Shown here: in pieces, positions 1 through 64,000 of the stretch
Layout: each line of letters starts with the position of its first letter
Position numbering within the stretch: the stretch's first letter is position 1
Assembly (NCBI GenBank): GCA_963773175.1
Contig: CAVZAC010000006.1
Location: forward strand, 2,999-66,998
Direction of reading: 5' to 3'
Length of the DNA: 64,000 nt
Origin: an uncultured Actinomycetes bacterium
GTDB lineage: Bacteria > Actinomycetota > Thermoleophilia > Gaiellales > Gaiellaceae
Position numbers and translations under genes: made by a program
The notes under the pieces: generated by a model
Seen by the model: the letters and a program-made list of their open reading frames with translations, nothing else
Told to the model about the DNA's origin: nothing
Databases searched by the model: none

Positions 1-2460
1 GCGCTCCGCAGCGGCGGCTCCGGCAGTACGGTCGCGACGGCGCGGATCGGAGCCGACAGCGTCGGCGCGGTCGACGCATCGAGTGGGCGCCTCCTGGCGT
101 CCAGTCCGGTGGAGTCGACTCCCGGAGCGCTCGCCGCGGATCGAGGCTCGGTCTGGGTCGCTAATCCCGGCAGCAACAGCGTGTCGAGGATCGACGCGAA
201 GTCGCATGCGAAGACGCAGACGATCGCCGTGGGGAACGATCCGACCGCGATCGCGATCGGCGGCGGTTTCGTGTGGGTGGCGAACGGGCTCTCCGGCACC
301 GTGTCGAAGATCGACCCGAACGCGAACGGCGGAGGCGGCGCGGTCGTGGACACGATCCCGGTCGGGAACGGGCCTTCCGGAGTCGCGTTCATCGACGGTC
401 GACTGTGGGTCGCGAACTCCACCGATCGAACGGTGCTGGAGTTCGTCGCCGGCTCGCACACGCCGCTGCGAACGATCGGCGTCGCCGGCGGTGCGGACGC
501 GCTCGCGACGGGCCTCGGGTTCGTATGGGTGGCGAGCAGCGCCGCCAACAGCGTTACGCGGATCGTCGTGCGCTCGGGGACGGTGCTGTCGGCGATCGGC
601 GTCGGCAACGGTCCCACCGCGATCGCCGTCGGCGACGGTGCCGCGTGGGTGGCGAACAGCCTGGATGGGACGCTGTCCCGGATCGACCCGAGCGACGGGG
701 CCGTCAGCGTGATCCCGGTGGGTGGGATCCCGACCGGGGTTGCCGCAGGCGGCGGGTTGGTGTGGGTGAGCGACGGCCGCGGCGGGACGATCTCGCGTGT
801 CGACCCGGCGGCGAAGACGGTCGCGAAGACTGTCCGGACCGGGAACCAGCCGCAGGAACTGGCGCTCTCCGGGCGGGCGTTGTACGTGGCGGTGAAGGCC
901 TTAGGAGTCGCGCATCGAGGCGGCACCCTGGCGGTGTTCCCGATCGACCCGACGGGTTTCGATTCGATCGATCCGGCTCGCGACTTCACCCAGGACGGGT
1001 GGTCGGCGCTGAGCGTGACGAACGATGGGCTGGTCACCTTCCAGCGCGTCGGCGGCAGCGCCGGCACGCGGCTCGTCCCCGATCTCGCTACCTCCATTCC
1101 CGTCCCGACTGACGGAGGCAGGACGTACACATTCCAGGTGCGCACCGGCATCCGCTACTCGACCGGAGCGCTTGTCGAACCGGCCGACTTCCGCCGCGCG
1201 ATCGAGCGCTCACTCTCCGCGTCCTACCGATCGCACGTCGGCGCAGGCTACATCTACGCCGGCATCGTCGGTGCCTCGTCGTGTGCGAAGAAGACCGGTC
1301 GATGCGACCTGTCCAAGGGCATCATGGTCGACCCGTCCGCGGCCACGGTCACGTTCCATCTGAGCGCACCCGACCCGGTCTTCCTCGACAAGCTCACAGA
1401 GCCCCCGGCCTACGCGGTACCCGCGGACACCCCCCTCGTGGCGCGACTCCCGCTCCCGGCCACCGGCCCGTACCTGATCAAGAAATACGAGGCGAAACAC
1501 GGCGCCGTACTAGCGCGCAATCCCAGGTTCCACGAGTGGTCGTCCGCGGCACAGCCGGCCGGTTACCCCGACGAGATCACCTGGACGTTCGGAGCCTCGT
1601 CTGCCGACCAGGTCGCGGCAGTCCGAGCAGGCACAGCCGACTACACACCCATCGCAGCCGGCCAGGCCCCCGCCTTGCGGCGTAGCGGGTACGGGAACGA
1701 GCTGCACGTCAACCCCACGTTCGAGACGGACTACTTCTTCTTCAACACGAGGCTCGCGCCCTTCGACGACGTCAGAGTTCGTCGAGCGGTCAATCTCGCC
1801 GTCGACCGGAACCACTTGATCACGCTTACGCTCGGCCCAGGCAGCGGCCAGCCGACGTGCCAGGTGCTGCCGCCGAACCTCGCCGGCTACATCCGCTACT
1901 GCCCCTACACGCCTGACCTAGTCCGAGCCAGACGGCTGGTCGCCGCATCCGGAACTACAGACCTGACCGTAACCGTCTGGTCGTTCCCTGGCCGAGCCCG
2001 CGGCGCGGCGTATCTCCGCTCGGTCTTGCGGAGCCTCGGCTACAAGACCCGACTCAAAGTGCTCGAAATCGACGCCTACTTCAAAGCCGCGAATGACCCG
2101 CGGAACCGCATCCAGGTCGGCTCCGCCGGCTGGATCGCCGACCAGCCCTCGGCGGACAACTTCTTCTACCCCCTGCTCACCTGCCCGTCCTACCGCCCGC
2201 GCTCGAACACGTACTCGAACTACGGACTGTTCTGCAGCACGCCCGTCGACCGCGAGATCACCCGCGCCCGAACGCTCGAGATCAGCGACCCCCAAGCCGC
2301 AGGCGCGCTCTGGAGCAAGATCGACCAAGACGTCGTCGACCTGGCCGCCTGGGTCGCGTACGCAAACGCTCAGACGTTCGACCTCGTCTCCAGCCGAGTC
2401 GGCAACTACCAGCACAACCCATGGTGGGGCGCGCTCCTCGACCAGATGTGGGTGCGCTAG
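1..2460 (+). CDS. YVTN/YncE-type beta-propeller repeats fused to a family-5 (peptide/nickel type) ABC substrate-binding domain; 5' end outside window
   Basis: Frame 1 is open from nt 1 (first listed start GTG 109). The N-terminal half consists of ~40-aa units like GNGPTAIAVGDGAAWVANSLDGTLSRIDP (at least 7 copies). The C-terminal half reads like SBP_bac_5 (TYTFQVRTGIRYSTGALVEPADF, NPRFHEWS, HNPWWGALLDQMWVR*). Stop 2458-2460. Confidence 0.7.
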   Translation, partial: ALRSGGSGSTVATARIGADSVGAVDASSGRLLASSPVESTPGALAADRGSVWVANPGSNSVSRIDAKSHAKTQTIAVGNDPTAIAIGGGFVWVANGLSGTVSKIDPNANGGGGAVVDTIPVGNGPSGVAFIDGRLWVANSTDRTVLEFVAGSHTPLRTIGVAGGADALATGLGFVWVASSAANSVTRIVVRSGTVLSAIGVGNGPTAIAVGDGAAWVANSLDGTLSRIDPSDGAVSVIPVGGIPTGVAAGGGLVWVSDGRGGTISRVDPAAKTVAKTVRTGNQPQELALSGRALYVAVKALGVAHRGGTLAVFPIDPTGFDSIDPARDFTQDGWSALSVTNDGLVTFQRVGGSAGTRLVPDLATSIPVPTDGGRTYTFQVRTGIRYSTGALVEPADFRRAIERSLSASYRSHVGAGYIYAGIVGASSCAKKTGRCDLSKGIMVDPSAATVTFHLSAPDPVFLDKLTEPPAYAVPADTPLVARLPLPATGPYLIKKYEAKHGAVLARNPRFHEWSSAAQPAGYPDEITWTFGASSADQVAAVRAGTADYTPIAAGQAPALRRSGYGNELHVNPTFETDYFFFNTRLAPFDDVRVRRAVNLAVDRNHLITLTLGPGSGQPTCQVLPPNLAGYIRYCPYTPDLVRARRLVAASGTTDLTVTVWSFPGRARGAAYLRSVLRSLGYKTRLKVLEIDAYFKAANDPRNRIQVGSAGWIADQPSADNFFYPLLTCPSYRPRSNTYSNYGLFCSTPVDREITRARTLEISDPQAAGALWSKIDQDVVDLAAWVAYANAQTFDLVSSRVGNYQHNPWWGALLDQMWVR

Positions 2461-2580
2461 CAGCGCCGCCAGCGTCTAAGCTCATTCCCTCGGAATTCGA
2501 CGCTGAACATCGCGCAATGTCCACGTTTGGGGGCGTCTCGCGGGTCCTCCCTCCTAACCCGCGCGCGCTAACCTGCAGCG

Positions 2581-3091
2581 ATGACCACCTTCGACCTGCG
2601 CTCGGTGAAGGTGCGGGTCGGCGAGGAGCACCGCACAGTGCAGGAGATCGAGCTGAGGCCGGTCGACCTCGCCGGAACTCGCTACATCCCGGTGCCCGAG
2701 ACGGTGGCGGCCGAGTTCGCCGTCACCCGCGCCAACACGGGCACCGTCTTCGAGCTGCGCTTCCACACGCGGCTGCACGGGCCCATGCTTCCGATGCCTC
2801 TCCGACGCCGTGCTCGACCTTCCGATCACGGCTCGCGAGTACCAGGCGGAGCAGCCCGACGGTCTGGAGGAGCTGATGACCCCGTACCTCGACGACGAGC
2901 TTCTCGATCTGTCGGCCTGGGCGCACGATGCGCTCGTGCTCAACCTGCCGGACAAGATCCTGTGCCGCGCCGACTGCGCCGGGCTCTGCCCCGTCTGCGG
3001 CGCGGATCTGAATGCCGGCCCGCACACGCACGAGGAGACCGAGCCGGACCCGCGCTGGGCCGAGCTGGCGAAGCTGCGCGACGCGCTCTGA
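2581..3091 (+). CDS. yceD: DUF177/YceD-family protein; reading frame broken once as sequenced
   Basis: N-terminal part is in frame 1 (ORF 2581..). C-terminal part is in frame 2 (ORF 2810..3091, ...CRADCAGLCPVCGADLN...). Removing one base at ~2785 (ggg ccc [a] tgc ttc cga tgc) restores LHGPCFRCL, the first CxxC motif. It lies directly upstream of rpmF, the usual synteny. Confidence 0.75.
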
Positions 3092-5457: not shown

Positions 5458-5494
5458 GCAGGGTCGTCCTGGGGCGCCGTCAGACTTGGCGCCG

Positions 5495-8400
5495 GTGCAC
5501 CTGAAGTCGATCAAGATCCGCGGGTTCAAATCGTTCCCGGACCCGGTCGAGATCCGGCTGGAGCCGGGTGTCGCGGTCGTGGTCGGGCCGAACGGCTCCG
5601 GGAAGTCGAATGTCGCCGACGCGCTGCTCTGGGCCGCGGGGAGTCAGAGCCCGCGCGAGCTGCGGGCCGAGCGTGCGGACGACGTCCTGTTCGCGGGCGC
5701 GAAGGGCCGGCCCCCGGCCGGCTCCTGCGAGGTCGAGCTGGTGTTCGACAACGAGGACGGCGCGCTGGCGGAGCTCGACTTCGCGGAGGTGTCGGTTGCG
5801 CGCAGGCTGCACCGCGGCGGGGAGGGTCAGTACCTCGTCAACCGTGCTGCGGTGCGCCGGCTCGATCTGGTGGAGCTGCTCGCGGACGCAGGGCTCGGCG
5901 GCGGCTTCCGGGCCGTCGTCTCGCAGGGCCGCGTCGAGGAGATCCTCGCCAGCCGCCCCGAGGAGCGGCGGGCGCTCGTGGAGGAGGCGGCAGGGCTCGG
6001 GCGTTTCAAGCTGCGGCGCCACCGCGCCGAGTTGAAGCTCGCGCGCGTCCAGGCTCAGGTCGAGCGGTCGCGCGACGTCGAGCAGGAGGTTCGGGCGAGG
6101 CTTCGGCCGCTCGCGCTCCAGGCGACGGCGGCGGAGCGTGCCGAGCGGCTCGGTGGAGAGATCGCATCGCTGCACGCTCGGGTCGCGGAGCTCGACGTCG
6201 AGGCGCTGGAGGGAAAGCTCGCGGAGGCCGAGGATGCGCGCCTGGCCGCGTCGCTCGCGCGGCGCCGCGTCGACGGGGCGCTCGAGTCCACGCTGGCCGA
6301 GCGCGACGCGGCGGAGGAGGAGCTGGCGGACGCGGCGGGCGGCCGCGAGCGCGCAACGGCGTCTCTCTACCGGATGCGGAGCGCGGTCGAGCGGCTGGAG
6401 CTGCGTCGCGAGGCGGCCGAGGCTCTCGAGTCCCGCCTGCGCTGCGACGTCGAGGAGGCCGCGTCCGCTGCGCGAGAAGAGGCGCTCGACACGGCAGCCC
6501 GGGAAGCGCAGGAGACTGCCCGGGCGGCGGCGCTGGAACGGGTCGAGTTCGCCCGGCGCGCACGGGAGCTGTACGAGCGGCTGGCGGGGGCCGAGCGCGC
6601 GCTCGCCGTCCGCGCCGAGGCGAGGGTGGTCGCGGCGGCGACGGAACGCCGACTCGCGGAGGACGAGCTCGCGGCGGCCGCGCAGGCCCGCGAGCGGCAC
6701 TACTCGGTGCGCGCCGCCGGCGAGCGGGTCGAGCTCCGGCGTGAATCGGCCGCGGCGCTGCTCGCGCGACTGCGCGGCGAGCTGGCACAGGCCGAAACGG
6801 CGCAGCGTCTCGCTCCGGACGACCTGCGGAGGGCAGCGGACGAGGCGGCCGCGGCGGCCAGGGCGGCCGTGCGCGCGCGAGACGAGCTCGGCGAGCGGGC
6901 CCGCCTGGCTCGCGACCGGCTGGCCGCTCTCGACGGCGCTCTGGCGGAGCGCGAGGGCATCCCGCCTGCCGCCCGCGCTCTGGCGGAGGCGGGCCAGCGC
7001 CTGGCGCTGCAACTGGTCGATGTCGAGCCCGGGCACGAGCGGGCCGTCGCGGCCGCTCTCGGGCCGCGGGCGTCGGCGGTGGTCGCCGCGCGACGCGGTG
7101 GCTGCGCTGGCGCTCGTCGAGCAGGCCGCAGCCTCCGGGCTCGGGGCGTTGCGGGTGCTGATCGGACGCGACCCGGCCGAGCTGGTGCGGGAGCTTCCGA
7201 TCGTGCCGAAGGAGCGGCTGCTCGCCTCCCGCGGCCCTGCCGTGACCGTCGAGGGGTTCGGCTACGACCCCGGCCGCGGCGAGCTCTGGTTCGCGGGTGC
7301 GGCCGCGGAGGCGGTGCAGCTGGAGCTGCGCGCCCGCAGGCGCGCGCTGGCGGCTGAGGCGGGGAAGCTCGACCGGGCAGTCGCGAGGGCCGGCGTGAAC
7401 GCAGAGCGCGCGGAGCGGGTCGAGGCGGAAGCCGAGCGGCAGCTCGAGGCGATTCCGCCGGAGCTCCGCCGGCCGCTGCCCGCGCCGGCGGTCGCCGTGC
7501 GCCTCGTCGGTGGAGCGCAGCGCCTCGACGCAGCGTTGCTCGCGGCCGCCGCTGCCGCGCGACGCTTGGAGGAGGGGTCGGCCGCGGGAGCCGCCGCCGG
7601 CGCACCGCTCCGGCAGCTGGCGGACGCCGAGACGGCCTGTCGGCGCCAGGCGCAGGACGCCGCGGCGCGGGCGGCCGCAGCCGAGGCCGAGCTCGTGCGC
7701 CTGGGCGGATCCCCCGGCGCCGCCACCGTCGGCGACGCCGCGTCGCTGCGCGCAGCCGCCGCCGACGCCGGCTCCGAGCTCACCGCGGCCGAGGAGCGCG
7801 CGGCGCGGGCAGCCGAGGACGCGCGGCGGGCCGTCGCGAACCGCGACGCCGCCCTGGGCCGCTCCCCGGACCGCGACCTCCTGGCGCGGATGGCCGATGC
7901 CGCAGCGAGGCTGGCCGCGATCCTCGCGGCGGCGGCGGCCTCCGCCGGACGGGTCGAGGGCCCGCTGCGCGCCCGGGTCGATGCGGGGACGTCCCGCACG
8001 GGCGAGCTGGCCGCGGACCTGCGGCGCCTCGCCGAGCGCGAGGCAGAGCTCCGGCGCGAGGCGGGCGCGGCCGCCGAGCGAGCCTCGGCCGCGGACGTGG
8101 CGTTCGCGACGATCGGATCGAGCCTGGCCGACGCGCGGCACCGGCTGGGCGAGGCCGGGGTCGACCCGGCGCAGGGCGAGAACCGGGACGAGCTCGTGCA
8201 GCGCGCCGAGCGGCTCGAGCGCCGGCGCGAATCACTGGGCCAGGTGAACCCGCTGGCCAAGGCCGACTACGAACGCGAGCGGGAGCGGCTCGACGACTGC
8301 CGCCTGCAGCGGGAGGACCTGGAGCGGAGCCTCCGGGAGCTCGAACGGCTGCGTGCGGAGCTCGCCGAGACCGTCGAGCAGCGCTTCACGGAGACGTTCG

Positions 8401-8858
8401 GCACGATCGCGGAGACCTTCTCCGAGGTCGCTGCCACGCTCTTCCCGGGCGGCGAGGGGCGCCTCTCGCTCGTCGAGCCGGGCGAGGAGGAGGGCGCCGA
8501 ACCCGGCATCGAGGTCGAGCTGCGGCCGGCGGGCAAGCGGGTCACGCGGCTCTCGCTGCTCTCGGGCGGCGAGAAGGCGCTCGGCGCGATCGCCTTCCTG
8601 TTCGCGCTGTTCCTGGCCCGGCCGTGCCCGTTCTACCTGCTCGACGAGGTCGAGGCCGCGCTGGACGACGCCAACATCGGCCGCTTCGTCGCGCTGCTGC
8701 GCCGCTACTCGGACCGGGCCCAGTTCATCGTCGTCACGCACCAGAAGCGGACGATGGAGGCGGCCGACCTGCTGTACGGCGTGACGATGGGCACGGACGG
8801 GGTCTCGGAGGTCGTCTCCCGTCGCATGCCGCGAGAGCGCGCCGCGGTTCCCGCCTGA
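5495..8858 (+). CDS. smc: chromosome segregation protein SMC; one frame break as sequenced
   Basis: Has Walker A GPNGSGKSN, a long coiled coil, a hinge (VDVEPGHERAVAAALG), the signature LSGGEKALGAIAF and Walker B FYLLDEVEAALD. N-part is in frame 2 (ORF 5486..7357) and C-part in frame 3 (ORF 6138..8858), with a +1 step at ~7085. Span length is 3n+1. GTG 5495 gives the classic MHLKSIKIRGFKSF start. Confidence 0.85.
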
Positions 8859-10481: not shown

Positions 10482-10990
10482 TCAGACCGAAGCGACCTCC
10501 CGCAGCGCGGGCTGCAGCGCCGCGACCTCCCTCGCCCAGGCCCGGATCTCGTTCCAGTCCCGCGCGTCCGAGGCGGTCATGCGGCTGAACGGGAAGCGCT
10601 GCTTCGCGGGATCGAGCACGCCGCCAAAGATCGCCACGGCGACCGGCTCGACCTCGGGCACCGCTGCGAGCGCCCGGTCGAGCTGACTCCGTGACCCGGC
10701 CAGCTCCTTCTCGGACAGCGTCCGCGGGCCCATGGCGAAGACCGCGAACGGGCTTCACCGCCAGCGCATGCCGGTGCCGGTGCAGGAACCCCCGCGCGTC
10801 GCGGTGCAGCCGTCCCATGTAGAGGGCGCCGCCGAGCACGACTCCCTCGTAGTCGCTCAGATCCTGCACGTCGCCCGCGGGACGGACCTCGACCGCCAGC
10901 CCCTCCCGGTGCAGCGTCTTGCGCCACGGCCTCGGCGACCTCCTGCGTCGAGCCTCTCTTCGTCGCATACGCAACCAGGGTGCGTCCCAT
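10482..10990 (-). CDS. flavodoxin-domain protein; two frame breaks as sequenced
   Basis: MGRTLVAYATKRGSTQEVAEAVA, then KTLHREGLAVEVRPAGDVQDLSDYEGVVLGGALYMGRLH, then MGPRTLSEKELAGSRSQLDRAL...FGGVLDP lie in three consecutive frames. The +1 steps are at ~10925 and ~10740. ATG 10990 has GGAGG. Span is 3n+2. Confidence 0.6.
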
Positions 10991-11189: not shown

Positions 11190-12314
11190 ATGAGCGCACT
11201 TGCGGTAGCGGCACTCCTCGCTGGAACGATCCTCCTGGCCTCGATGATCTCGGTCGAGATCGGGCTCTCGGTCGCGCTGATCGAGCTCTTCGCCGGGGTC
11301 GTCGTCGGCAACGCGTTCCACCTCTCGGTTCCCGACTGGCTGAACTTCATCGGCGGCTTCGCCGGGATCCTGCTGACGTTCCTCGCGGGGGCCGAGGTCG
11401 ACGTGCCCCAGTTCAAGCGCGAGTGGAGGGCCTCACTCGCCATCGGCCTGGTCTCGTTCTCCGCGCCCTTCGTCGTGGTCGGGCTGCTGGCCTACTACGG
11501 GCTCGGCTGGAACCACCGCCAGGCGGAGATCGCCGGCATCGCGCTGTCCACGACGAGCCTCGCGGTGGTCTACGCCGTGCTCGTGGAGACGGGGCTGAAC
11601 CAGACGGTGATCGGCAAGCGGCTGATGTCGGCCACCTTCGTCACCGACTTCGGGACCGTCGTCGCGCTGACGATCCTGTTCATCAAGCCGACGATCTGGA
11701 TCGTGCCGTTCGTCGCCGTCTCGATCGCGCTGATCTGGGGGCTGCCGAAGCTCGCGCCGCACTTCTTCAAGCGCTACGGCAACCGGGTGATCGAGCCCGA
11801 GATCAAGCTCGTGTTCGCGTGCCTCTTCGTGCTCATGTGGCTCGGCGGCCGGGCCAACTCGCAGGCCGTGCTGCCCGCGTTCGTGCTCGGGCTCCTGATG
11901 AGCAGCCACTACGCGAGCCACCGCCTCGAGCAGGAGCGGCTGCGGGTCGTCGCGTTCGCGTTCCTCACGCCGTTCTTCTTCCTGAAGGGCGGCATGAACG
12001 TCTCGCTGAACGCGGTGTGGGCCAACCTCGGCATCCTCGCGCTGCTCGTTCGCCGGGAAGATGGTGCCGAAGATCGCCGGCGTCTACCCGCTCGCGCGCC
12101 GCTTCACCGCGCCGCACGCGGCGTTCACGACGCTGCTGATGTCGACCGGGCTCACGTTCGGGACGATCAGCGCGCTCTACGGGCTGAACGCGCACATCAT
12201 CGACCGCACGCAGTTCTCCCTGCTGATCTCCGTCGTCGTACTCTCTGCGATCGTGCCCACCGCGATCGCGCAGCGCTTCTTCCAGCCCCACGCGGCGGCG
12301 GAGCTGGCCCGTGA
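11190..12314 (+). CDS. cation:proton antiporter (CPA2/Na_H_Exchanger type); frame break ~12055, 3' end unresolved
   Basis: ATG 11190 has GGAGG upstream. The protein is highly hydrophobic and multi-helix. It runs in frame 3 to ~12055, then frame 1 (ORF 12061.., KMVPKIAGVYPLARRF...AIAQRFFQP). The end is either TGA 12312-12314 (frame 3, GTGA overlap) or TGA 12445-12447 (frame 1). Confidence 0.65.
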   Translation: MSALAVAALLAGTILLASMISVEIGLSVALIELFAGVVVGNAFHLSVPDWLNFIGGFAGILLTFLAGAEVDVPQFKREWRASLAIGLVSFSAPFVVVGLLAYYGLGWNHRQAEIAGIALSTTSLAVVYAVLVETGLNQTVIGKRLMSATFVTDFGTVVALTILFIKPTIWIVPFVAVSIALIWGLPKLAPHFFKRYGNRVIEPEIKLVFACLFVLMWLGGRANSQAVLPAFVLGLLMSSHYASHRLEQERLRVVAFAFLTPFFFLKGGMNVSLNAVWANLGILALLVRREDGAEDRRRLPARAPLHRAARGVHDAADVDRAHVRDDQRALRAERAHHRPHAVLPADLRRRTLCDRAHRDRAALLPAPRGGGAGP

Positions 12315-12352
12315 CCGCGCCGGGCGCCGCGGCACTCGAGTCGGAGGTGGTC

Positions 12353-12782
12353 GTGACATGCCCTTCGACGCGGATCCTGGTGGCGATCGACGGCTCGGAT
12401 GCGTCGGATCGCGCGTTCGCGCACGGCGCTCGAGCTCGCCGTGCTGACCGGCGCGACCCTCACGGCGCTCGCCATCGAGGGGCCGCTGCCCGCCTACGCG
12501 GCGACGATCGGAGAGGTCGACGAGGTCAAGCGCGAGAAGGACGCGTTCTTCACCGGGCTCGCCACTCGGTCGCAGGAGCAGGCGCGTGCCGCCGGGGTCG
12601 AGGTCGCCGTCGAGCTGCGGCCGGGCCACCCGGCCGAGGTGATCTCGGAGTTCGCCGCGGCCGGCGGGCACGACCTCGTCGTGCTCGGCCACAAGGGCCA
12701 CTTCCTGCGCGACCACCTGCTCGGCTCGACCGCCGACCGCGTCTCCGAGCATGCGCCCTGCCCCGTGATGATCGTGCGCTAG
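12353..12782 (+). CDS. universal stress protein (UspA family); one frame break
   Basis: STRILVAIDGSDASDRAFAH is in frame 2. ALELAVLTGATLTALAI...GHDLVVLGHKGH...LLGSTADRVSEHAPCPVMIVR* is in frame 3 (ORF 12399..12782). The +1 step is at ~12425. GTG 12353 has GGAGG upstream; GTG 12311 is an alternative start. Confidence 0.75.
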
Positions 12783-12818: not shown

Positions 12819-14230
12819 GTGTTCGACGCGCTCTCAGACAGGCTCCAGGCCACGCTCGGCGACCTCCGCGGCCGCGGCCGGCTCGACGACGAGGCGATCT
12901 CGAAGGCGATGCGCGAGATCCGGCTCGCGCTGCTCGAGGCGGACGTCAACTTCGGCGTGGTGAAGGAGTTCGTCGCGGGCGTCCGCGAGCGGGCGCTCGG
13001 CGCCGACGTGCTGGCGAGCATCACGCCCGGCCAGCAGGTCGTGAAGATCGTCCACGAGGAGCTGACCGCGCTGATGGGCTCGGGCGACTCGCGGCTGGCC
13101 TTCGCCGGCAAGCCGCCGACCGTGATCCTGCTCGCCGGGCTCCAGGGCTCGGGCAAGACGACGGCCGCCGCCAAGCTCGCGCTGCTGCTGCAGAAGGACG
13201 GGAAGCGGCCGGCGCTCGTCGCCGCCGACCTGCAGCGGCCGGCGGCGATCGACCAGCTGCAGCAGCTCGGCGCCCAGATCGAGCGTGCCGGTGTATGCGG
13301 ACGACCGCGCCGACCCCGTGACCGCCGTCCGGCTGGGCATCGAGCGGGCCCGGGCTGAGAGCCGGGACGTCGTGATCCTCGACACGGCCGGCCGCCTTCA
13401 CGTCGACGAGTCGCTGATGGACGAGCTCGCGGCCGTCCGCAAGGAGGCGCGGCCGACGAACGTCCTGCTCGTCGTCGACGCGATGACCGGCCAGGAAGCC
13501 GTCTCGGTCGCCCAGGCCTTCCAGGAGCGGGTCGCCTTCGACGGCGTGATCCTCACGAAGCTCGACGGCGACGCCCGCGGCGGGGCGGCCCTGTCCGTCA
13601 GGGCCGTGACCGGGAGGCCCATCAAGCTCGCCTCCACGGGCGAGAAGCTCGACCAGCTCGAGTGGTTCCACCCCGATCGCATGGCGTCGCGGATCCTCGG
13701 CATGGGCGACGTGCTCACGCTGATCGAGCGCGCCGAGGCCGCGGTCGAGGTGGACGAGAAGGAGGAGATGGAGCGCCGCATGATGCGCGGCGAGTTCACC
13801 TTCGACGACTTTCTGCGCAGCTACCGGATGCTGCGCAGGATGGGCCCGCTGCAGGGCGTCCTGAAGATGATCCCGGGGATGGGCAAGCAGCTCGAGGGAC
13901 TCGACCAGGTCGACGACCGGCAGATGGCGCGGGTCGAGGCGGTCATCCTCTCGATGACGCCCCACGAGCGGCGCGTCCCGCACGTGATCGACGGCTCGCG
14001 GCGTCGCCGCATCGCCGCCGGCAGCGGCACGACGGTCGAGCAGGTGAACCAGCTCATCGAGGGCCGCAAGATGATGGCCAAGATGATGAAGCAGGTCGGG
14101 AAAGGGCAAGATGCCCGCGCTGCCGGGGATGCCCGAGCTGCCGGGCGCGTCCGGATCGGGCGGCCACGCCCGCTCGGCCACGCGGAGCACGAAGAACAAG
14201 CGGAAAGCGAAGAGAAAGAGTCGGAAGTGA
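12819..14230 (+). CDS. ffh: signal recognition particle protein Ffh (SRP54); two frame breaks
   Basis: MFDALSDRLQ, GLQGSGKTTAAAKLA, DTAGRLH, TKLDGDARGG, an M domain, and the basic tail RSTKNKRKAKRKSRK*. Frames go 3 -> 1 (~13285) -> 2 (~14108, ggg aaa ggg [c] aag atg). Span is 3n+2. Confidence 0.9.
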
Positions 14231-14880: not shown

Positions 14881-15624
14881 GTGCGGGTCGCGGCGCTCTA
14901 CGACATCCACGGGATGGCGGACGCGCTCGGCGCCGTGCTGGCGGACGTGGAGCGGGCGGACGTCGACGCGATCGTGGTCGGCGGCGACACCGTGGGAGGC
15001 CCGCAGCCGGCCGAGACGATGGCGCTGCTGCGGACGTCGGGCGTTCCCCTCCACTGGATCCGCGGGAACGGCGATCGGGCGCTCGGCGAGGACGGGGCGA
15101 CCGGCGCGGACGCCGAGACCCTGGCCTTCACGGTCGAGCGCCTCGATCCGGCGGATCGGGCGTTTCTGACGGCGCTCCCCGAGCAGCTCGAGCTCGACGT
15201 CGAAGGACTCGGGCCCGTGCTCTTCTGCCACGGCACGCCGCGGAAGCGACATCGAGCTCGTCACGCCGGAGACGCCCGAGTGGGTGCTCCGCCGGGCGCT
15301 GGAGGGCGTCGACGCCGGCGTCGTCGTGAGCGGGCACACGCACATGCAGTTCGACCGGCGCGTGGACGGCCGGCGCTGGCTCAACGCGGGCTCGGTCGGT
15401 ATGCCGTACCAGGGGGACGTCGCCGCGTTCTGGGCGCTGCGTCGGCCCGGATCTCGAGCTGCGCCGGACGCCGTTCGACACCGAGCAGGCGGAGCGCGCA
15501 ATCCTCGGCTCGGGATGGCCGGAGGCTGCGGAGTTCGTTGCCGAGAACCTCCGGCAGGCCGTCCCCGGCGCGGCAGCCATCGCCGCACTTCGAGCGTGTC
15601 GCGGCCGAGCGCGGCGAACGGTGA
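14881..15624 (+). CDS. metallophosphoesterase-family protein; three frame breaks
   Basis: VRVAALYDIHG...VVGGDTVGG...IRGNGD...FCHGTP (frame 1), then LRRALEGVDAGVVVSGHTHMQFDRRVDGRRWLNAGSVGMPY (frame 2), then GPDLELRRTPFDTEQAERAILGSGWPEAAEF (frame 3), then HFERVAAERGER* (frame 1). Span is 3n with three +1 steps. The stop overlaps the rimM GTG (GTGA). Confidence 0.6.
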   Translation: MRVAALYDIHGMADALGAVLADVERADVDAIVVGGDTVGGPQPAETMALLRTSGVPLHWIRGNGDRALGEDGATGADAETLAFTVERLDPADRAFLTALPEQLELDVEGLGPVLFCHGTPRKRHRARHAGDARVGAPPGAGGRRRRRRRERAHAHAVRPARGRPALAQRGLGRYAVPGGRRRVLGAASARISSCAGRRSTPSRRSAQSSARDGRRLRSSLPRTSGRPSPARQPSPHFERVAAERGER

Positions 15625-29819: not shown

Positions 29820-31198
<1,379 letters not shown>

Positions 31199-31218
<20 letters not shown>

Positions 31219-42235: not shown

Positions 42236-42288
42236 CGCGGGGCGATGCTACCCGAGTCCCAATCCGCCCGCTCGGTCGGCGTGTCGCC

Positions 42289-48899: not shown

Positions 48900-49866
48900 A
48901 TGCCAGGGCAGAGCGCGGTGAGGCACGAGGTTCGGCCGTCCGCGCTCCGTCGCGCTCCGGAGTGTCTTCGTCCTCGTTCTCGCCGCGTTCCTCGCCGGCG
49001 GCCTGGCCGGGCTCGGGAGCTACGTCCGGAACTACTGGCTCTACCGCGGCTTCCCCCCGCCGCGAGACCCGGCGTTCGTGCAGACCCCCGGCCGCACCGT
49101 GCGGTTCAAGCTGACCAGCCCGGCGCTCGGCGGGCGGCGGCAAGAGGTGTACGTCTACCTCCCCGCCGCCTACGAGCAGCAGCCCGCGCGCCGCTTCCCC
49201 GTCGTCTACCTGCTGCACGGCTTCCCGGGCCGTCCCACGGCCTTCCTGCAGACCGTCCGCGCCGGCGTCGTGGACGACATCATCGCCGCGAAAGGCGTCG
49301 CGCAGCCCGCGATCCTCGTCATGCCGTTCGGCTCAACCGGGACGTTCACCGACAAGGAGTGGGCCAACGGGATCCGCCCGCACGAGGACTGGGAGACGTT
49401 CGTCGCGCGCGATGTCGTGCGCGCTGTCGATCGCCGCTACAGGACGATCCCGACCGCGTCGGGGCGCGTGCTCGCCGGGCTCTCGGAGGGGGGCTACGGC
49501 TCCCTCAACATCGGGCTCCACCACCCCGGCGAGTTCGGGGTGCTCGAGAGCTGGTCGGGGTACGAGCAGGCCGACAACATCGCGTCGATCTTCGGCCGCA
49601 GGCCGAGGCTGCTCGCCTACAACAGCCCGACGAAGCAGCTTCCGCTGGTGCTCCCGGGACTGCGCCGCGCGCACACGTACATCTGGTTCTACAGCGGGAG
49701 CACGGATCCGCTCCGGCGCCAGAACGCGGCCTTCGCCAAGGAGCTCGTGCGCTACCGGATCCCGCATCGCTACTTCCTCGTGCGCGGCGGCCACAACTGG
49801 GCGCTCTGGCGCGGGCAGGCCGAACGGGCGCTCTCTGCGGCGCTGACGAGGCTCGCGCATGGCTAG
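48900..49866 (+). CDS. putative esterase (esterase-D/enterochelin-esterase-like alpha/beta hydrolase) with N-terminal TM anchor; one frame break
   Basis: ORF 49078..49866 (VVYLLHGFPGRP..., GLSEGGYGSL nucleophile elbow, ...RGGHNWALW). The same frame is open upstream through a TM segment (VFVLVLAAFLAGGLAGLGSY) but has no start. ATG 48900 lies one frame back, so there is a +1 step at ~48945. Confidence 0.65.
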
Positions 49867-51959
49867 ATGCTGCTCGGATCGCCGCCGACGTCGCCGCCGG
49901 GCTGGCCGTGCCTCGCGGTCGTCCTCGGCGCGAGCGGCTGGCTGTACCTCCTCGAGTCGCACACCTGGGGCCCGTTGTTCGGCCCGTCGATCGGCGACGC
50001 GCTGCCGCTGGACGAGCTCTCGAAGCACTCGGCCGTGCCGCTGTCCGGCTTCGTGGCGGTCTGGGGGGCCGCCGCGCGTCCTGCTCGGGCTGATCGCCCG
50101 TTGGCGCCGAGTCGAGCGGCTCACCGCCGCGCTCCTGCTCGCGCTCGGAGTGGCGCTGTGGGGCTACCTGGAGACCGGCGTGTCGCTGCTGATCGTGCGC
50201 CAGGTGCCGGCCCACGCGGCGTTCGGTGCCGCGTCGCAGCTGGAGGCCGTCTACCTCCCGGCGGCACTCGCGGGTCTCGGCGGCGCCCTGCTCGCACGGG
50301 AGCGAGGGTCGCGGCACCGGGCGGCGACGGTTCTCGCCTGCTTCGTCGGCGCGGCCGGTGCTCTGGACGTGCTCGACGGGATCCTGCCGGCGCGCGGCGA
50401 GGGTTTCCTCGAGCAGCTCGCGCCGCAGCCCGGTGCACCCCGTGACCGTGGCGCTCGTGGCCCCGATCGGATTGCTGCTGATCCTGCTGGCCCGTGGGCT
50501 CGCCCGCCGCAAGCGCCGCGCGTGGCAGCTTGCGACCGCGCTCCTCTGTGGCTCGGCGGCCCTGAACGCGCTGCACGGGTTCAACCACGGCGCGCTGGCG
50601 ACCGCTCTGGTCGCGATCGCCCTCGTGGCGAGGAGGCGGGACTTCGACGCACGGGGTGATCCCGGTGCGAGGCCGCGCGTCATCGCCCGCGCGGCGGTCT
50701 TCCTCGCGCTCGTCTACGCCTACGGCGCGAGTGCCCTGTGGGCCAACCGGATCATGGCCGACCAGCCGTTCACGTTCCCGTTCGCGATCCGCGAGACGAC
50801 GCTGTCGCTCGTCGGCGTCAACATCCGCGGCTCGGCCCACCTCGTCGGCGCCTTCGACTCGTGGTTCCCGTTGTCGATGCTGCTGCTCGGGCTCGGCGGC
50901 GCGATCTCTCTGCTCGTCACCTGGCTCGCGCCCTGGCGGCACCGCGTGGCGCAGGAGGCGCACCAGCGCGAGCTGGCCCGCGACCTCGTGCGCGCCTGGG
51001 GAGAGGACACGCTGGCGCCGTTCGTGCTGCGCCGGGACAAGTCGTACTTCTTCACCGAGGACGAGCGGGCGATGATCGCATACAAGGTAGTGAGCGGCGT
51101 CGCGATCGTCTCCGGCGATCCGATTGGCCCGCCCGGAGCGCTCGCGGGCCTCGTGCGGGCGTTCGTCGCGTTTGCGCACGACCGCGACTGGCGGATCGCC
51201 ATCCTCGGGGCGTCCGAGCGGTGCCTCGCGCTCTACCGCTCGCAGGGTCTGCGCGCGCTGTACCACGGCGACGAGGCGGTGCTCGACGTGCCGACCTTCT
51301 CGCTCGAGGGCCGTGCGATCCGCAAGGTGCGCCAGTCGGTGCACCGGCTGGGCAAGGCCGGCTACCGCGCAGAGGTGCTGCGCCCGGGGGCGATCGGCGG
51401 CCCGCTGCGCGCCGAGCTCGAGGCGATCGCGCGCACGTGGCGCGCGGGCGAGCCGAACCGCGGCTTCGTGATGTCGCTGGACGCGCTGTTCCGGCTCGAG
51501 CACGACGACGCCGTGTTCGTCATCGGCTTCGGGCCCGACGGACGCGCCGCCGGCTTTCTCCACTACGCGGTCTGCGAGCGGGCCAGCGCTCTCTCGCTCT
51601 CGTCGATGCCGCGCCTGCGCGATACGCCGAACGGCTTCAACGAATGGCTCGTCTGCGAGACGGTGGACTGGGCGCGGTCGCGTGGGATCGAGCGGATCTC
51701 GCTCAACTTCGCGCCGTTCGCCGCCGTGCTCGCGCCGGAGGCCGAGCTGACGGCGCTCCTGCGGCTGGAGCGGAGCGCGCTGCTCCGCCTCAAGGGGCAC
51801 TTCCAGCTCGACAATCTCCTGGTCTTCAACCGGAAGTTCTACCCGGCCTGGCAGCGTCGCTTCGTCGTCTACGAGCGGCGCCGCGACCTGCCGCGCGTCG
51901 GGCTCGCGGCACTGGCCGCCGAGGCGTACCTGCCGTTCACCGGGCGCGAGCGCGCGTGA
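49867..51959 (+). CDS. MprF-like membrane protein with C-terminal aminoacyl-phosphatidylglycerol synthase domain (DUF2156); two frame breaks
   Basis: ATG 49867 abuts the previous stop. N-terminal TM segments span frames 1 -> 2 (~50075) -> 3 (~50430). The C-terminal ~330 aa (ORF 50226..51959) read ...LVRAWGEDTLAPFVLRRDKSYFF...IAYKVVSGVAIVSGDPIG...FLHYAV...SLSSMPR...PNGFNEWL...ISLNFAPF...NLLVFNRKFYPAW. Confidence 0.7.
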
Positions 51960-52836
51960 ACCTCGCGCTCGGGCTGCTGCTCGCCCTCGGCTCCGCGGTC
52001 GCCATCAACTGGGGCTACTACGCGCAGCATGCCGTCGCCCACGAGCTTCCGCCGCTGTCGGTCCGGCGGCCGATCAAGTCGCTGCTCGCGCTGTTCACGG
52101 TCCCCCGATGGTTGATCGGCTTCTGGGTGAGCATCGGCGGATGGGTGCTGTACGTGGTTGCGCTGAAGCTCGCGCCGCTCTCGCTCGTCCAGGCCACGGC
52201 GGCCGGCGGGATCGCGGTGCTCGCGCTGCTCGTCTCGCGCGGCGGCAAGGCGCTGGCGCAGGAAGGAGCTGGCCGGTGTCGCCGTGTCGCTGCTCGGGCT
52301 GGTGCTGCTCGGCGTCTCGCTCGTCGGGCCAGTCGACGCCGACGAGCGACGGGCACGTGGGATCGGTCGTGCTCTGGCTCGTCGCGTCGGCGGTGGTCGC
52401 CGGGCTGGCCGCCGGGGCGGGGATGCGGTGGGCAGCCGGGGGCGCGGGTCTGGGCATCGCCGCGGGTGTGCTCTACGCGGCAGGCGATGTGGGGACGAAG
52501 GCTGCGGTCGTCGGAGGACCGCGGCTCTGGCTCGTCGTCCCCGTGCTCGCTTGCCACGGCGCCGCCTTCGTCGCGCTGCAGCTCGGCTTCCAGCGCGGCG
52601 GCGCGCTCGCCACGGCGGGAGTCGCGACGCTCTTCACGAACGCGCTGCCGATCCTGGCCGGCACCGTCCTCTTCGCAGAGGGCCTGCCGAGCGGCGCGCT
52701 CGGCGTCGTCCGCGTCGCGTCGTTCGCCGCGGTCGTCGTCGGCGCGGCTCTACTCGCCCGGCCGGAGACTCCGGACGAGCCGGTGCCGATCGAGAGCGCA
52801 CAGGGAGCCGCTCTGGCCCTGGTTCGTCCCGACTAG
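51956..52836 (+). CDS. multi-pass membrane protein (DMT/EamA-like?); two frame breaks
   Basis: GTG 51956 overlaps the previous stop (GTGA). VNLALGLLLALGSAVAINWGYYAQHAV...VVALKLAPLSLVQATAAGGIAVLALL / ELAGVAVSLLGLVLLGVSL / ...VLYAAGDVGTKAAV...LFTNALPILAGTVLFAE.... Frames go 2-3-1. Span is 3n+2. Confidence 0.5.
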
Positions 52837-53628
52837 CTCTTCCGGGTCTCGGGCTCGGGTGCGAACACGCCCCACGGTGAGCCGTCTGCTGCGTGCCTCG
52901 CGGGACGCCGCTCGAGGAAGGCGCGGAGTCCCTCCTGTCCCTCGACGCTGGTGCGGCGCTCGGCGGTGCGGTCGACCGTCTCAGCCGCGTCCGGCCGTTC
53001 CAGCACCAGCCGCTTCGCGGCCCGCACTGCCTCCGGGCCGGACGACAGCAGCTCGGCGACGATCCGTTCGACGGCCGCGTCGAGATCGTCCGCGACCTCG
53101 CTGACCAGCCCGATCCGCAGCGCCGTTGCGGCGTCGAAGCGCTCGCCGGTGAGGAAGAGCCGCCGCGCATGCGCTTCGCCGATCTTGCGCAGCACGAAGG
53201 GCGAGATCACCGCCGGGACGATCCCGAGCTTCACCTCGGAGAACGCGAACAGCGCATCCGGCGCGGCGACGACGATGTCCGAGCAGGCGACCAGCCCGCA
53301 GCCGCCGCCCAGCGCGTGGCCCTGCACCGCGGTCACGACCGGAGCAGGGCAGGAGTCGATCGCGTCGAGCATCGCGCGCAGGCGCTCGCGCGTCGCGCAC
53401 GTTCTCCTCGAAGTCGAGGTCGACCGAGGCCCGCATCCATCCGACGTCGGCGCCCGCGGAGAAGCTCGGGCCCTCGCCGGAGAGCAGCACGGCCCGCGCG
53501 TCGCCGACGTCCGCGAACGCGGCCCCGAGCTCCTCGATCAGCTCCGCGTCGAACGCGTTCCGGCGCTCGGGCCGGGCCAGCACGATCCGCCGCAGCGGGC
53601 CGTCGGCGTCGATCCGCAGGCCACTCAT
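52833..53628 (-). CDS. enoyl-CoA hydratase/isomerase family protein (methylglutaconyl-CoA hydratase-like); one frame break
   Basis: ATG 53628. MSGLRIDADGPLRRIVLARPERRNAFD...VLLSGEGPSFSAGADV, then a +1 step at ~53395 into ORF 52833..53372 (...VQGHALGGGCGLVACSDIVVAAPDALFAFSEVKLGIVP...). Span is 3n+1. Confidence 0.8.
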
Positions 53629-53653
53629 CGCGGCGCCATCGTATGCTGCGGAT

Positions 53654-54511
53654 GTGATCTCCGGCGCACTCGCCGCGGCGCTGACGCCGCTCCGGGACGG
53701 GGGCGCGGCGCTCGACGAGCCGGCCTTCGCCCCCTACGTCGACTTCCTCGCCGGGAGCGGGCTCGACGGCATCCTCGCGCTGGGGACGACGGGCGAGGGG
53801 ATCCTGCTCTCGCCGCCCGAGCGCCGGCGTGCCGCCGAGCTGTTCGTCGGCGCGTCGCAGGGCAGGCTCGCGGTCGCAGTGCACTGCGGAGCGCAGACGA
53901 CGGCGGACACAGTCGCGCTCGCGGCGCACGCGGCCGAGGCCGGCGCCGCCGCCGTCGCGGTGATCGGGCCGCCGTACTTCGCGCTCGACGAGACGTGCGC
54001 TGCTCGAGCACTTCGCCGCCGCGGCCGCTGCGTGCGCGCCGCTGCCGTTCTACGTCTACGAGTTCGCGGCGCGGACCGGCTACGCCGTGCCGCTCGGCGT
54101 CATCGAGCGGCTGCGGGAGCGGGCGCCGAACCTGTCCGGGCTGAAGGTGTCCGACTCGCCGTGGGAGCGCTTCGAGCCGTATCTGATCGAAGGGCTGGAC
54201 ATCTTCGTCGGGCCGGAGGCGCTGATCGTGCAGGGTCTCGAGGCCGGAGCAGCCGGAGCGGTCTCGGGGCTCGGGTCGGCATACCCCGAGCTCGTCGCCG
54301 AGCCTCGTACACGAGCCGACGAAGGAGAGGATGGCGGAGGCGAAGCGGCTGCGGGAGGGACTGGAGCGCTTCCCGTTCCAGGCGGCTGCGAAGGCAGTCG
54401 TGGCCCTGCGGGGAGTCCCGCTGCACGAGGACGTGCGCGGCGCCGCTGCGGACGCTGACCGCGGAGGAGCGCGCCGAGGTCGCCCTTCTGGCCGGCCTCG
54501 ACTCCGGCTGA
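53654..54511 (+). CDS. dihydrodipicolinate synthase (DapA)/N-acetylneuraminate lyase family protein; three frame breaks
   Basis: AALTPLRDGGAALDEPAFAPYVDFLAGSGLDGILALGTTGEG...AVAVIGPPYF / LLEHFAAAAAACAPLPFYVYEF...NLSGLKVSD... / ...RFPFQAAAKAVVALRG.... Frames go 2-3-1-2. Span is 3n. Confidence 0.7.
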   Translation: MISGALAAALTPLRDGGAALDEPAFAPYVDFLAGSGLDGILALGTTGEGILLSPPERRRAAELFVGASQGRLAVAVHCGAQTTADTVALAAHAAEAGAAAVAVIGPPYFALDETCAARALRRRGRCVRAAAVLRLRVRGADRLRRAARRHRAAAGAGAEPVRAEGVRLAVGALRAVSDRRAGHLRRAGGADRAGSRGRSSRSGLGARVGIPRARRRASYTSRRRRGWRRRSGCGRDWSASRSRRLRRQSWPCGESRCTRTCAAPLRTLTAEERAEVALLAGLDSG

Positions 54512-57297: not shown

Positions 57298-57510
57298 ATG
57301 CGGATTCAGGTGAGCGACCCGATCTACGCTGAGGATCTCGCGAGGTTCCTCGCGCGGTCTGGCTGCGTGGTCGAGCGAGTCGGGTCCGATTCGCTGGAGG
57401 CATCGTTGCTCGGGTCGTTCCACCACGATCGCCTGCGGCTCGAGGTCGAGCTGCTCCTGCGGGCCTGGCTGACCACCCGGCCTGCTGCGAGCGCCCGGCT
57501 GACCGATTGA
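57298..57510 (+). CDS. hypothetical 70-aa protein
   Basis: Intact ORF with high GC3. Its stop shares one base with the ridA ATG (TGATG). No family recognised. Confidence 0.45.
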
Positions 57511-57891
57511 TGGAGCGGGGCCGCGTCGACGCTGTCTCGGCGTTCGCCGAGGCCGTCGGCTACTCGCGCGCCGTCCGCCGGGGCGATCGCGTGCTCGTGG
57601 CCGGCACGGCTCCGGTGATGCCCGGCGACGCCGACCCGCCGGCAGACGCCTACGGCCAGGCGCGGCGGTGCCTCGAGATACATCGTCGCCGCGCTCGCGG
57701 AGCTCGGCGCCGCTCCGCGCGATGTCGTGCGCACCCGGCTCTATCTGACCAGGGCGGAAGACATCGACGGGGTCGGGCGCGCCCACGGCGAGGTCTTCCA
57801 CCAGGCGCGACCGGTTTCGACGGCCGTTGTCGTCGCCGCTCTCCTCGATCCGCGCTGGCTCGTGGAGATCGAGGCCGAGGCCGTGATCTGA
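57510..57891 (+). CDS. RidA/YjgF/endoribonuclease L-PSP family protein; one frame break
   Basis: [36 protein letters not shown]...[11 protein letters not shown], then a +1 step at ~57680 (gag ata [c] atc gtc) into [39 protein letters not shown]...VEIEAEAVI*. Span is 3n+1. Confidence 0.75.
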
Positions 57892-63210: not shown

Positions 63211-64000
63211 ACGCGTTCCACTCCGGCGCTGCGCGAGCCCGTGAACAGGCCGTTGGGGCGAACGAGGAGGACGAGGATCACGGCGCCGAACAGGAACGAC
63301 GGCAGGTACTGGCTCTGGGCCGTCGGCAGCGCGCCGCCGAGGAGGCCGCTCGCGAAGCCGATCGTGAACCCGCCGAGGGTCGCCGGAACGAGCCGGTTCA
63401 TCCCGCCGACCACGACTCCGACGAGCACGAGGAGCGTGTCGTTGAAGGCAAAGTCGGGAGTGACGAGCGGTGTCTGCACGGTCAGCATCACGGCGACGAC
63501 CGCGGCCAGCGCTCCGGACATGAGCACGGCGGAGCCGATCACGCGATTGGCGCGGACGCCGAGCAGCCGTGCGGTGCCGAAGTCCAGCGAGGCCGCGCGC
63601 ATCTGCAGCCCGACCGTCGTCCGCTCCAGCAGCAGCACGAGCGCGACGAGGCACACCGCGGCCACGACGGTCGCGACGATCGTGATCTTCCGGATGTCGA
63701 CCCCGTGGATCGTCACCGGCCGGTTCAGGTACGCGAGCGAGACGGCGATCTTGCCCAGCGACCCGAACTTGAGCAGCGCGATGCTCTGCAGCAGGAACGC
63801 GACCGCGAAGGTCGCGGCCAGCATCACCGCCGGCGAGTGCCCGCGCAAGGGCCGGAACACGAGGCGCTCCATGAGCAGCGAGAGGACCAGCACGACCGCG
63901 AAGCAGAGAAGGATCCCGACCCATACCGGCCAGTTCCACTGGGAGGCGAGCGCAAGCGCGTAGGCGCCGGCCATGATGAGCTGCCCGTACGCGAAGTTGA
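63207..64000 (-). CDS. livH: branched-chain amino acid ABC transporter permease (LivH type), 5' end outside window
   Basis: ORF 63207..63974, with the frame continuing to the window edge (…NFAYGQLIMAGAY...). Its stop overlaps the livM ATG (ATGA). Confidence 0.85.
   Translation of the reverse strand, partial: NFAYGQLIMAGAYALALASQWNWPVWVGILLCFAVVLVLSLLMERLVFRPLRGHSPAVMLAATFAVAFLLQSIALLKFGSLGKIAVSLAYLNRPVTIHGVDIRKITIVATVVAAVCLVALVLLLERTTVGLQMRAASLDFGTARLLGVRANRVIGSAVLMSGALAAVVAVMLTVQTPLVTPDFAFNDTLLVLVGVVVGGMNRLVPATLGGFTIGFASGLLGGALPTAQSQYLPSFLFGAVILVLLVRPNGLFTGSRSAGVERV

Follow-up and report, generated by a model that had tools for sequence, protein, structure and literature searches.

Genes interrupted by frameshifts are numerous in pseudogene-rich genomes such as those of Mycobacterium leprae and recently host-restricted symbionts. 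Essential genes are spared in these genomes, nonsense mutations and deletions accompany the frameshifts, and selection is relaxed; bacterial gene decay in general is deletion-biased. Frameshifts of a different origin are well documented in metagenome-assembled genomes (MAGs) built from long reads, where they arise as errors and are worse at low coverage (PMC8103633; proovframe preprint). Such single-base indels split or shorten conserved genes, increase with poor consensus quality, are absent from short-read relatives, and are found by frameshift-aware protein-to-DNA alignment (proovframe, Kastor and IDEEL-type checks). The textbook Nanopore signature is the homopolymer deletion, and PacBio CLR raw reads contain 8% insertions, 3% deletions and 2% substitutions (proovframe preprint).

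The DNA described here, a stretch of 64,000 nucleotides (the window), is a Gaiellaceae-like MAG contig of 72% GC from a soil bacterium. It has many frameshifted genes, as do M. leprae-type genomes, but the spared essential genes, nonsense mutations and relaxed selection of those genomes are all unseen in it. It resembles the long-read MAGs in each of the respects given above, although its rate of frame breaks is unusually high (about 2/kb, and up to 10/kb in one gene) and, in contrast to the textbook Nanopore signature, its errors are almost purely insertions outside homopolymers. In this it is similar to the PacBio CLR raw-read profile, in which insertions dominate, substitutions are few and errors are not confined to homopolymers; that profile differs in describing raw reads rather than a consensus, and the relatives with a +1 bias are Nanopore-only MAGs. 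Judged by its error spectrum, the non-homopolymer insertion bias of the window appears to fit PacBio CLR raw-read error better than classic Nanopore error. We propose that the extra bases are very probably uncorrected single-base insertion errors in a long-read metagenome consensus and do not represent a biological system.

The window is collinear with contig Ga0683289_0001536 of JGI 3300086553, in which all of the genes are intact and which is 84–92% identical in nucleotide sequence by block (about 88% overall; blastn). This is the nearest relative found and is a different species; a second assembly of the same strain was not found. Plain DNA alignment to this relative called too many paired gaps (176 gap events within 21 kb), and a codon-aware aligner was used instead, a purpose-written protein-to-DNA dynamic-programming program that allows frameshifts and takes the intact JGI proteins as queries. 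The comparison set is composed of 44 orthologous genes between 2.5 and 52 kb of the window (41,952 coding nt). Genes without a JGI ortholog were analyzed by a codon-usage Viterbi frame path, by the continuity of Pfam domains across junctions, and with distant relatives, and a repeat protein lacking a JGI ortholog was self-aligned at the protein level to its own repeat unit. Antisense ORFs, which are typical of high-GC DNA, were removed from the reference ORFs of the relatives' loci by the relation GC3 > GC1 > GC2. Rfam and tRNA scans of the window revealed no RNA gene usable as a non-coding check.

Among the genes with a JGI ortholog, 30 of 44 (68%) are broken, and the alignment identifies 78 one-base insertions, four two-base insertions and five one-base deletions, corresponding to 86 extra and five missing bases (binomial p = 4e-20). 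Approximately 19 additional breaks are present in six genes with no JGI counterpart, for a total of about 105 breaks in 36 of about 66 genes in the window. These values are close to those of the original prediction, in which about 100 frame breaks, almost all of them +1, were proposed for about 37 genes, and more than half of the genes were considered broken. The essential genes ffh, smc, rplS, accA and pntB are all affected, as are comM and dprA, and function is no guide to which genes break. The broken genes are listed below by position and strand, with breaks derived from the JGI alignment unless another basis is given.

2581..3088 (+), yceD: one extra base in GGG 2779–2781; corrected amino acid identity 92.9%
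5486..8855 (+), smc: one extra C at 7089
10497..10990 (-), flavodoxin-like gene: extra bases at 10748 and 10918
11214..12749 (+), Na+/H+ exchanger-Usp gene: +1 steps at ~12048, ~12310 and ~12422 (codon-usage Viterbi path)
12819..14227 (+), ffh: extra bases at 13284 (C) and 14097–14103
14881..15621 (+), metallophosphoesterase: extra bases at 15240, 15440 and 15583
19364..19853 (+), rplS (ribosomal protein L19): extra G at 19831
20931..21231 (+), UPF0102: one extra base at ~21033
21274..22680 (-), secreted protein with 60-aa PD40-like repeats: ~8–10 breaks, mostly gains (self-alignment, Viterbi path)
22865..23977 (+), N6_N4 DNA methyltransferase: 11 events, 12 extra bases; corrected amino acid identity 94.0%
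23980..24472 (-), CBS-domain gene: extra C at 24356
24484..26026 (+), comM: one extra base at 24747–24748
26026..27008 (+), dprA: extra bases at 26179 and ~26223
27045..28170 (+), FAD oxidase (DAO): extra bases at 27369, 27630, 28035 and 28107
28700..29643 (-), ornithine cyclodeaminase-like gene: seven events, eight extra bases
29823..31218 (-), pntB: extra C at 31102
31593..32673 (-), pntAA: one extra base at ~32202
32740..33358 (-), LON substrate-binding domain gene: +1 at 33003, +1 at 33027, +2 at 33240 (JGI alignment, Viterbi path)
33396..34542 (+), hisC-like aminotransferase: six events, seven extra bases
34673..35855 (+), MFS transporter: five extra bases, one missing (35609)
35856..36844 (+), MeaB: extra A at 35878, extra A at 36497
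36816..37983 (+), PALP enzyme: one extra G in GGG 37785–37787
38070..39422 (-), MBL-rhodanese gene: four extra bases; a -1 at codon 3 is doubtful
39600..40734 (-), acyl-CoA dehydrogenase: extra bases at 39697, 39936, 40065 and 40230
40751..42235 (-), pepA: extra bases at 40836, 41143 and ~41949
42245..43484 (+), MFS transporter: extra bases at 42385 and ~42899; a -1 at codon 12 is doubtful
43503..43809 (+), SCP2-like gene: extra C at 43720 (four other references concur)
43904..46008 (+), TolB-like / RTX protein: extra bases at 44970 and 45212 (JGI alignment, Pfam)
46026..47639 (-), accA (biotin carboxylase-BCCP): extra bases at 46710, 46536, 46414 and 46290, and -1 at 46257 (linker)
47639..48789 (-), MFS transporter: extra bases at 47686 and 48211
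49859..51956 (+), lysyl-phosphatidylglycerol synthase-like gene: extra bases at 49868, 49897, 50078 and 50429
51951..52794 (+), membrane protein: +1 steps at ~52263 and ~52326 (Viterbi path only)
52878..53647 (-), enoyl-CoA hydratase: one extra base at ~53385 (four references concur)
53654..54502 (+), DHDPS-family gene: +1 steps at ~53993, ~54300 and ~54437 (references and Viterbi path)
57460..57888 (+), RidA: +1 step at ~57679 (Viterbi path)

Several of these breaks are seen in more than one way. The first break in ffh (13284) is recovered with four more distant references, and four other references also agree with the JGI alignment on the breaks in accA. Relatives of smc in the metagenome contig collection are 45–77% identical, and all 80 of them match the smc ORF at 6138–8858 only from residue 251–319 onward. 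Pfam hits run through the junctions in pepA after correction (Peptidase_M17 and M17_N), in RidA (Ribonuc_L-PSP, profile 4–120 of 121) and, as a weak TMEM234 hit covering both junctions, in the membrane protein at 51951..52794. The Na_H_Exchanger and Usp hits are each unbroken across one junction of the exchanger-Usp gene; its ~12310 step lies between both domains and is less certain, as are the steps at 49868 and 49897, which are close to the start codon of the lysyl-phosphatidylglycerol synthase-like gene. Alignment of the PD40-like repeat protein to its own repeat unit recovers five repeats across frames, with the signs of events in its linkers uncertain since there is no external reference; Tandem Repeats Finder detected nothing in this gene. 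The deposited record itself carries the extra bases, as its shortened products, P0001, P0121 and P0241, match fragments of the window exactly; P0001 is a 425-aa remnant of pntB, and P0241 a 505-aa remnant of the lysyl-phosphatidylglycerol synthase-like gene.

The number of steps anticipated for individual genes was recovered for smc (one), ffh (two), the metallophosphoesterase and pepA (three each) and hisC (seven extra bases), and the breaks claimed in yceD, comM, dprA, pntAA and pntB are all present in the JGI alignment. The nucleotide-level placements proposed earlier are off by a few nucleotides; in yceD, for example, the best placement is a G in GGG 2779–2781. Losses are few, as had been thought when about eight -1 junctions were proposed, and the alignment gives five one-base deletions. 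Four of these are doubtful: three are at N-termini (lepB2 18479, MBL-rhodanese 39415 and MFS 42279), and the fourth, accA 46257, is in a linker adjoining an insertion. The two -1 steps assigned to the LON-domain gene are in fact two-base gains, one of them a +2 at 33240 and the other the sum of the +1 events at 33003 and 33027. In intergenic regions there are 11 one-base gains and seven losses relative to the JGI contig in 1.8 kb, counts that are confounded by real indels.

The 53 extra bases that can be placed exactly include 21 G, 16 C, 9 A and 7 T, and their 70% GC content is similar to that of the genome (72%); 24 ambiguously placed events are outside these counts and those of neighboring bases. 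Most are not homopolymer extensions, as had been predicted: 38 of the 53 have no identical neighbor, and the longest run is 3. These 38 are distributed almost uniformly among the three codon offsets (13/10/15). The events therefore lack the in-run and typically deletional character of homopolymer-type indel error (454, Ion Torrent, Nanopore R9). Nor is there any strong motif shared around the events, a test that had been suggested with the original prediction, and only a marginal enrichment of ACGC/GCGT was seen. A GATC or methylation motif, suspected by eye from the sequence contexts, was rejected, as GATC is present at 10.5/kb window-wide and is not enriched near events.

The breaks are unevenly distributed, with a density of 0.2–0.5/kb at 1–10 kb, 2–4.6/kb at 20–50 kb, and only a single break beyond 55 kb. 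The central 30 kb averages about 2/kb, and the methyltransferase is the densest of the genes compared with the JGI relative, at up to 10 breaks/kb. The variation is about tenfold along the contig and heterogeneity across genes is significant (chi-square p = 1e-5); break density tracks contig position and not gene function or dispensability. This strong unevenness is absent from the original prediction.

There is no evolutionary trace of gene inactivation. After correction, amino acid identity to the JGI orthologs is 81–97% for broken genes and 83–100% for unbroken ones, and not a single in-frame stop codon is present in approximately 14,000 aligned codons. The dN/dS ratio of unbroken genes is 0.124; in broken genes it is 0.163 for the part before the first break and 0.142 for the part after it. 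Codon-sized indels relative to the JGI contig are balanced (22 vs 28 codons), and the insertion bias is restricted to the class that breaks the frame. The window thus shows neither the deletion bias, nonsense codons and relaxed selection of genuine pseudogenes nor their sparing of essential genes.

The same crude tblastn count of frame changes was applied to the window and to all sets of relatives. It reports 46 changes in 46 genes of the window, 40 of them +1, and 15 changes in 102 genes of relatives that are Nanopore-only MAGs from Microflora Danica, 13 of them +1 (13 to 2). There are no frame changes in 107 genes of short-read MAG relatives, and three in 266 genes of JGI and other metagenome contigs. 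Frame breaks among the relatives are therefore almost confined to Nanopore-only MAGs, which in Microflora Danica are metaFlye assemblies polished once with Medaka (PMC12313526), and the rate in the window is about nine times that of these relatives.

That the extra bases are present in the deposited sequence is also what real frameshift mutations would give in a lineage that is dying out, or has lately become host-restricted, and is accumulating pseudogenes on a massive scale, and some events could be genuine, such as the +1/-1 pair in the accA linker and those at N-termini. However, with 68% of the compared genes broken, including ffh, smc, rplS and accA, pseudogene formation is hard to square with viability, and it is further opposed by the lack of nonsense codons, a dN/dS that is not raised downstream of breaks, and an insertion bias of 86 to 5, opposite to that of bacterial decay. 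A break density that follows contig position rather than gene dispensability, and short-read relatives without any breaks, likewise argue against it, and we regard it as very improbable, in agreement with the original prediction that natural decay is not responsible. It is barely conceivable that the extra bases are real in this Gaiellaceae-like lineage and the genes are still expressed, through +1 ribosomal frameshifting on a large scale, translational bypass, transcriptional slippage or base deletion at the RNA level. This would need genome-wide, motif-free skipping of one nucleotide, at the ribosome or in RNA, and all that speaks for it is that the shifts share one direction and that the coding sequence beyond them is preserved. 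Against it, the sites share no slippery or stimulatory motif, including the conserved slippery or stall motif common to orthologs in programmed +1 frameshifting of the prfB type, and there are no long homopolymers to support slippage; the longest runs at break sites (3) are of G or C, not the long A/T tracts of endosymbiont-type transcriptional slippage rescue. No site is conserved in the close relative, whose orthologs are single-frame throughout, and both the tenfold variation in density and the presence of the same bias at a low level in unrelated Nanopore MAGs weigh against decoding of this kind.

A different artefact, the collapse of co-existing strains into one consensus whose graph retained the two alleles next to each other at polymorphic sites and so gained one differing base, draws on the observation that, of the extra bases with an exact position, 72% are unlike either neighbor, compared to about 49% expected at random. 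Moreover, 11 of 25 non-run G/C insertions split a GG or CC pair (contexts read by eye), and the densest stretch, at 21.3–24 kb with the methyltransferase and the repeat protein, is of a strain-variable kind. The depletion of neighbor matches vanishes, though, if the 24 ambiguously placed events are of the homopolymer type, and the predicted deficit of the offset incompatible with third-position polymorphism is weak and not significant in the observed distribution. We consider strain collapse unlikely. The explanation originally favored was indel error in the consensus or another non-biological process of insertion, and every sequence-level test run concurs with it.

If the extra bases are uncorrected insertion errors, noisy single-molecule reads would have been assembled into the 80.9-kb MAG contig, and consensus building or polishing would have left stray bases at about two per kb over the middle 30 kb but at a much lower density towards the ends of the window, perhaps through uneven depth or uneven polishing. 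Every stray base would shift the reading frame, and since out-of-frame stops are rare at 72% GC, gene callers would return long spurious or shortened ORFs; the deposited products are just such fragments. The origin of the extra bases would lie in the sequencing platform and the consensus step, and the raw reads would be expected to lend them no support.

In the organism itself the genes are almost certainly whole, and the breaks are therefore of no biological importance; the finding holds for the file but is ordinary as a phenomenon. Its consequence is one of data quality, in that over half of the genes in a public MAG contig are split or shortened. The fragment proteins P0001, P0121 and P0241 are already in the protein collection searched, and this record would mislead any analysis of pseudogenes, gene content or protein families. 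Low-level, +1-biased breaks are also present in Nanopore-only MAGs of this high-GC clade, a point that may be relevant to those who maintain polishing pipelines.

Protein-to-DNA alignment of the window with a collinear relative reveals single extra bases in most of the genes compared. The reference is 46.5 kb of JGI contig Ga0683289_0001536 (JGI 3300086553; three look-ups), which is collinear with window positions 2.5–52 kb at a blastn identity of 84–92% by block, and in which all called genes are intact. Each JGI protein was used as query in a purpose-written aligner that permits gains and losses of one or two bases. Among the 44 JGI orthologs (41,952 coding nt) 30 are broken in the window, with 78 one-base gains, four two-base gains and five one-base losses. 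This frameshift-aware comparison thus yields 86 extra bases against 5 missing (binomial p = 4e-20), the +1 direction proposed from inspection by eye; of the five losses, four (three N-terminal and one in the accA biotin-carrier linker) are doubtful. In that linker +1 and −1 events are about 30 nt apart (46257–46290), and, instead of two errors, the pair may reflect a genuine compensated difference or an alignment effect of low-complexity sequence. The smc gene of the relative (JGI locus L082, 3431–6802) is 86.7% identical over 1123 aa; a word-index protein search with the window smc fragment missed it while returning other hits on the same contig, which is a limit of the search and not biology.

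A second, reference-free count used a Viterbi path through six coding frames scored by the window's own codon usage, and recovered the junctions already known within a few bases. With this path, Pfam continuity, Gaiellales references and repeat self-alignment, the count was extended past the JGI orthologs.

Breaks in genes without a JGI ortholog, and in pepA
Na+/H+ exchanger-Usp gene: 3 steps, 2 confirmed by Pfam domains continuous across the junction
pepA N-terminus: break confirmed by a Pfam domain continuous across the junction
RidA: 1 step
Membrane protein at 52 kb: 2 steps
Enoyl-CoA hydratase: 1 step, from several Gaiellales references
DHDPS-family gene: 3 steps, from several Gaiellales references
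Secreted repeat protein, 21.3–22.7 kb: about 8–10 breaks, from alignment to its own 60-aa repeat unit, which restores five repeats across three frames

All breaks combined number about 105, in 36 of about 66 genes. The original prediction of about 100 breaks is borne out, and its counts of extra bases match for individual genes (smc 1, ffh 2, metallophosphoesterase 3, pepA 3, hisC 7).

The same breaks are evident in the deposited record, an 80,912-bp contig. A protein search with the window PntB fragment shows that the deposited PntB product (425 aa) is identical to it and is a truncated gene call; a full-length PntB (465 aa, 96% identical) is present on a 57.9-kb JGI contig, and Gaiellaceae MAG proteins at 79–85% identity form a long tail. 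Likewise, deposited P0121 (smc, 586 aa) and P0241 (lysyl-phosphatidylglycerol synthase, 505 aa) are identical to window fragments, and the frame breaks were therefore already in the public record and do not come from preparation of the window. Among window ORFs with the best third-position GC, which were the input to the Pfam search, some matches start in mid-profile (SRP54 from profile position 52, PntB from position 34).

Five tests on the sequence argue that the breaks are not biological. First, removing the extra bases leaves no in-frame stop codons in the aligned codons, and broken genes then match the JGI relative at the same amino acid identity as unbroken ones; the methyltransferase, which has 11 events, reaches 94% identity to its ortholog once corrected. 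Second, unbroken genes have a dN/dS of 0.124, and broken genes one of 0.163 before the first break and 0.142 after it, so that DNA past the breaks, which would be untranslated were the breaks real, is constrained like the remainder. Third, codon-sized indels relative to the JGI contig are balanced (22 vs 28 codons), and the insertion bias is confined to the frame-breaking class. Fourth, the 53 exactly placed extra bases have a genome-like composition (G 21, C 16, A 9, T 7) and a longest run of 3, and the 38 without an identical neighbor divide 13/10/15 among the codon offsets. The test for a shared motif within 6 nt of the events found no convincingly enriched k-mer (105 tests). ACGC/GCGT lies near 27 of 82 insertion events where 12.8 would be expected (nominal p = 3e-4), a borderline excess given 105 tests; this may be chance or a slight context preference in the error process. 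GATC was discarded as an insertion motif, being simply very common genome-wide. Finally, break density varies with contig position and not with gene function: it is 0.2–0.5 per kb at 1–10 kb, about 1.4 at 10–20 kb and 2–4.6 at 20–50 kb (between-gene heterogeneity, chi-square p = 1e-5). Past 55 kb there is a single break, and pccB, uppP and the ABC permeases in that part each keep one frame throughout. The densest stretch, about 20 breaks in 2.7 kb (21274–23977), contains an N6_N4 DNA methyltransferase and the adjoining secreted protein of 60-aa PD40-like repeats; lower depth or strain variation there is our guess as to the reason.

For a control with relatives, a crude measure was taken in the window and in 159 fetched loci: the number of times the frame changed from one tblastn segment to the next within 46 intact reference proteins.

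Frame changes by data source (genes; changes; +1, −1; changes per kb coding)
Window: 46; 46; 40, 6; 1.04
Microflora Danica Nanopore-only MAG relatives: 102; 15; 13, 2; 0.12
Short-read MAG relatives (GTDB): 107; 0; 0, 0; 0.000
JGI and other metagenome contigs: 266; 3; 2, 1; 0.012

Among the relatives, long-read assemblies hold nearly all of the frame breaks, with the same +1 direction, which ties the signature to data type and not to lineage biology. The Microflora Danica loci concerned are L095, L113, L119 (seven changes alone), L125, L129, L130, L132 and L139; these MAGs were assembled with metaFlye and given a single Medaka polishing round (PMC12313526). Frameshift errors in long-read MAGs are well documented and are worse at low coverage (PMC8103633; proovframe preprint). 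For long-read MAGs of this high-GC clade, a bias toward +1 may be a general trait.

The tests and this control together support the non-biological reading proposed at the outset, consensus indel error or the like, and the breaks are very probably an assembly artefact, well known in kind and of unusual severity in this record, with no biological novelty. The near-pure, non-homopolymer insertion bias is closer to PacBio CLR raw error (proovframe preprint) than to the classic error profile of Nanopore, although the relatives with this bias come from Nanopore-only data. A sub-mechanism in which strain polymorphisms were collapsed and the consensus kept each of the two alleles would account for the extra base being usually unlike its neighbors and for the maximum density in the strain-variable methyltransferase and repeat-protein region. 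The deficit in codon offset that it predicts is weak and not significant in the window, and we consider it an improbable source of the breaks.

The GC content of the window is 69–75% along its whole extent, and its 321 six-frame ORFs of at least 80 aa are a number expected of such very high-GC DNA. Scans for tRNA genes and Rfam-detectable RNA genes found none in the window. An ORF at 60439–61563 encodes HisKA and receiver domains separated by about 150 residues without a reported ATPase domain match; the codon-usage path detects no frame change in it. Gene content departs from that of the JGI relative at three places.

11060–12812: Na+/H+ exchanger-Usp gene in place of the relative's DUF190 and CrcB
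16090–17060: APH-like phosphotransferase ORF inserted, with rimM on one side and trmD on the other
21240–22820: repeat-protein gene, absent from the relative, inserted next to the methyltransferase
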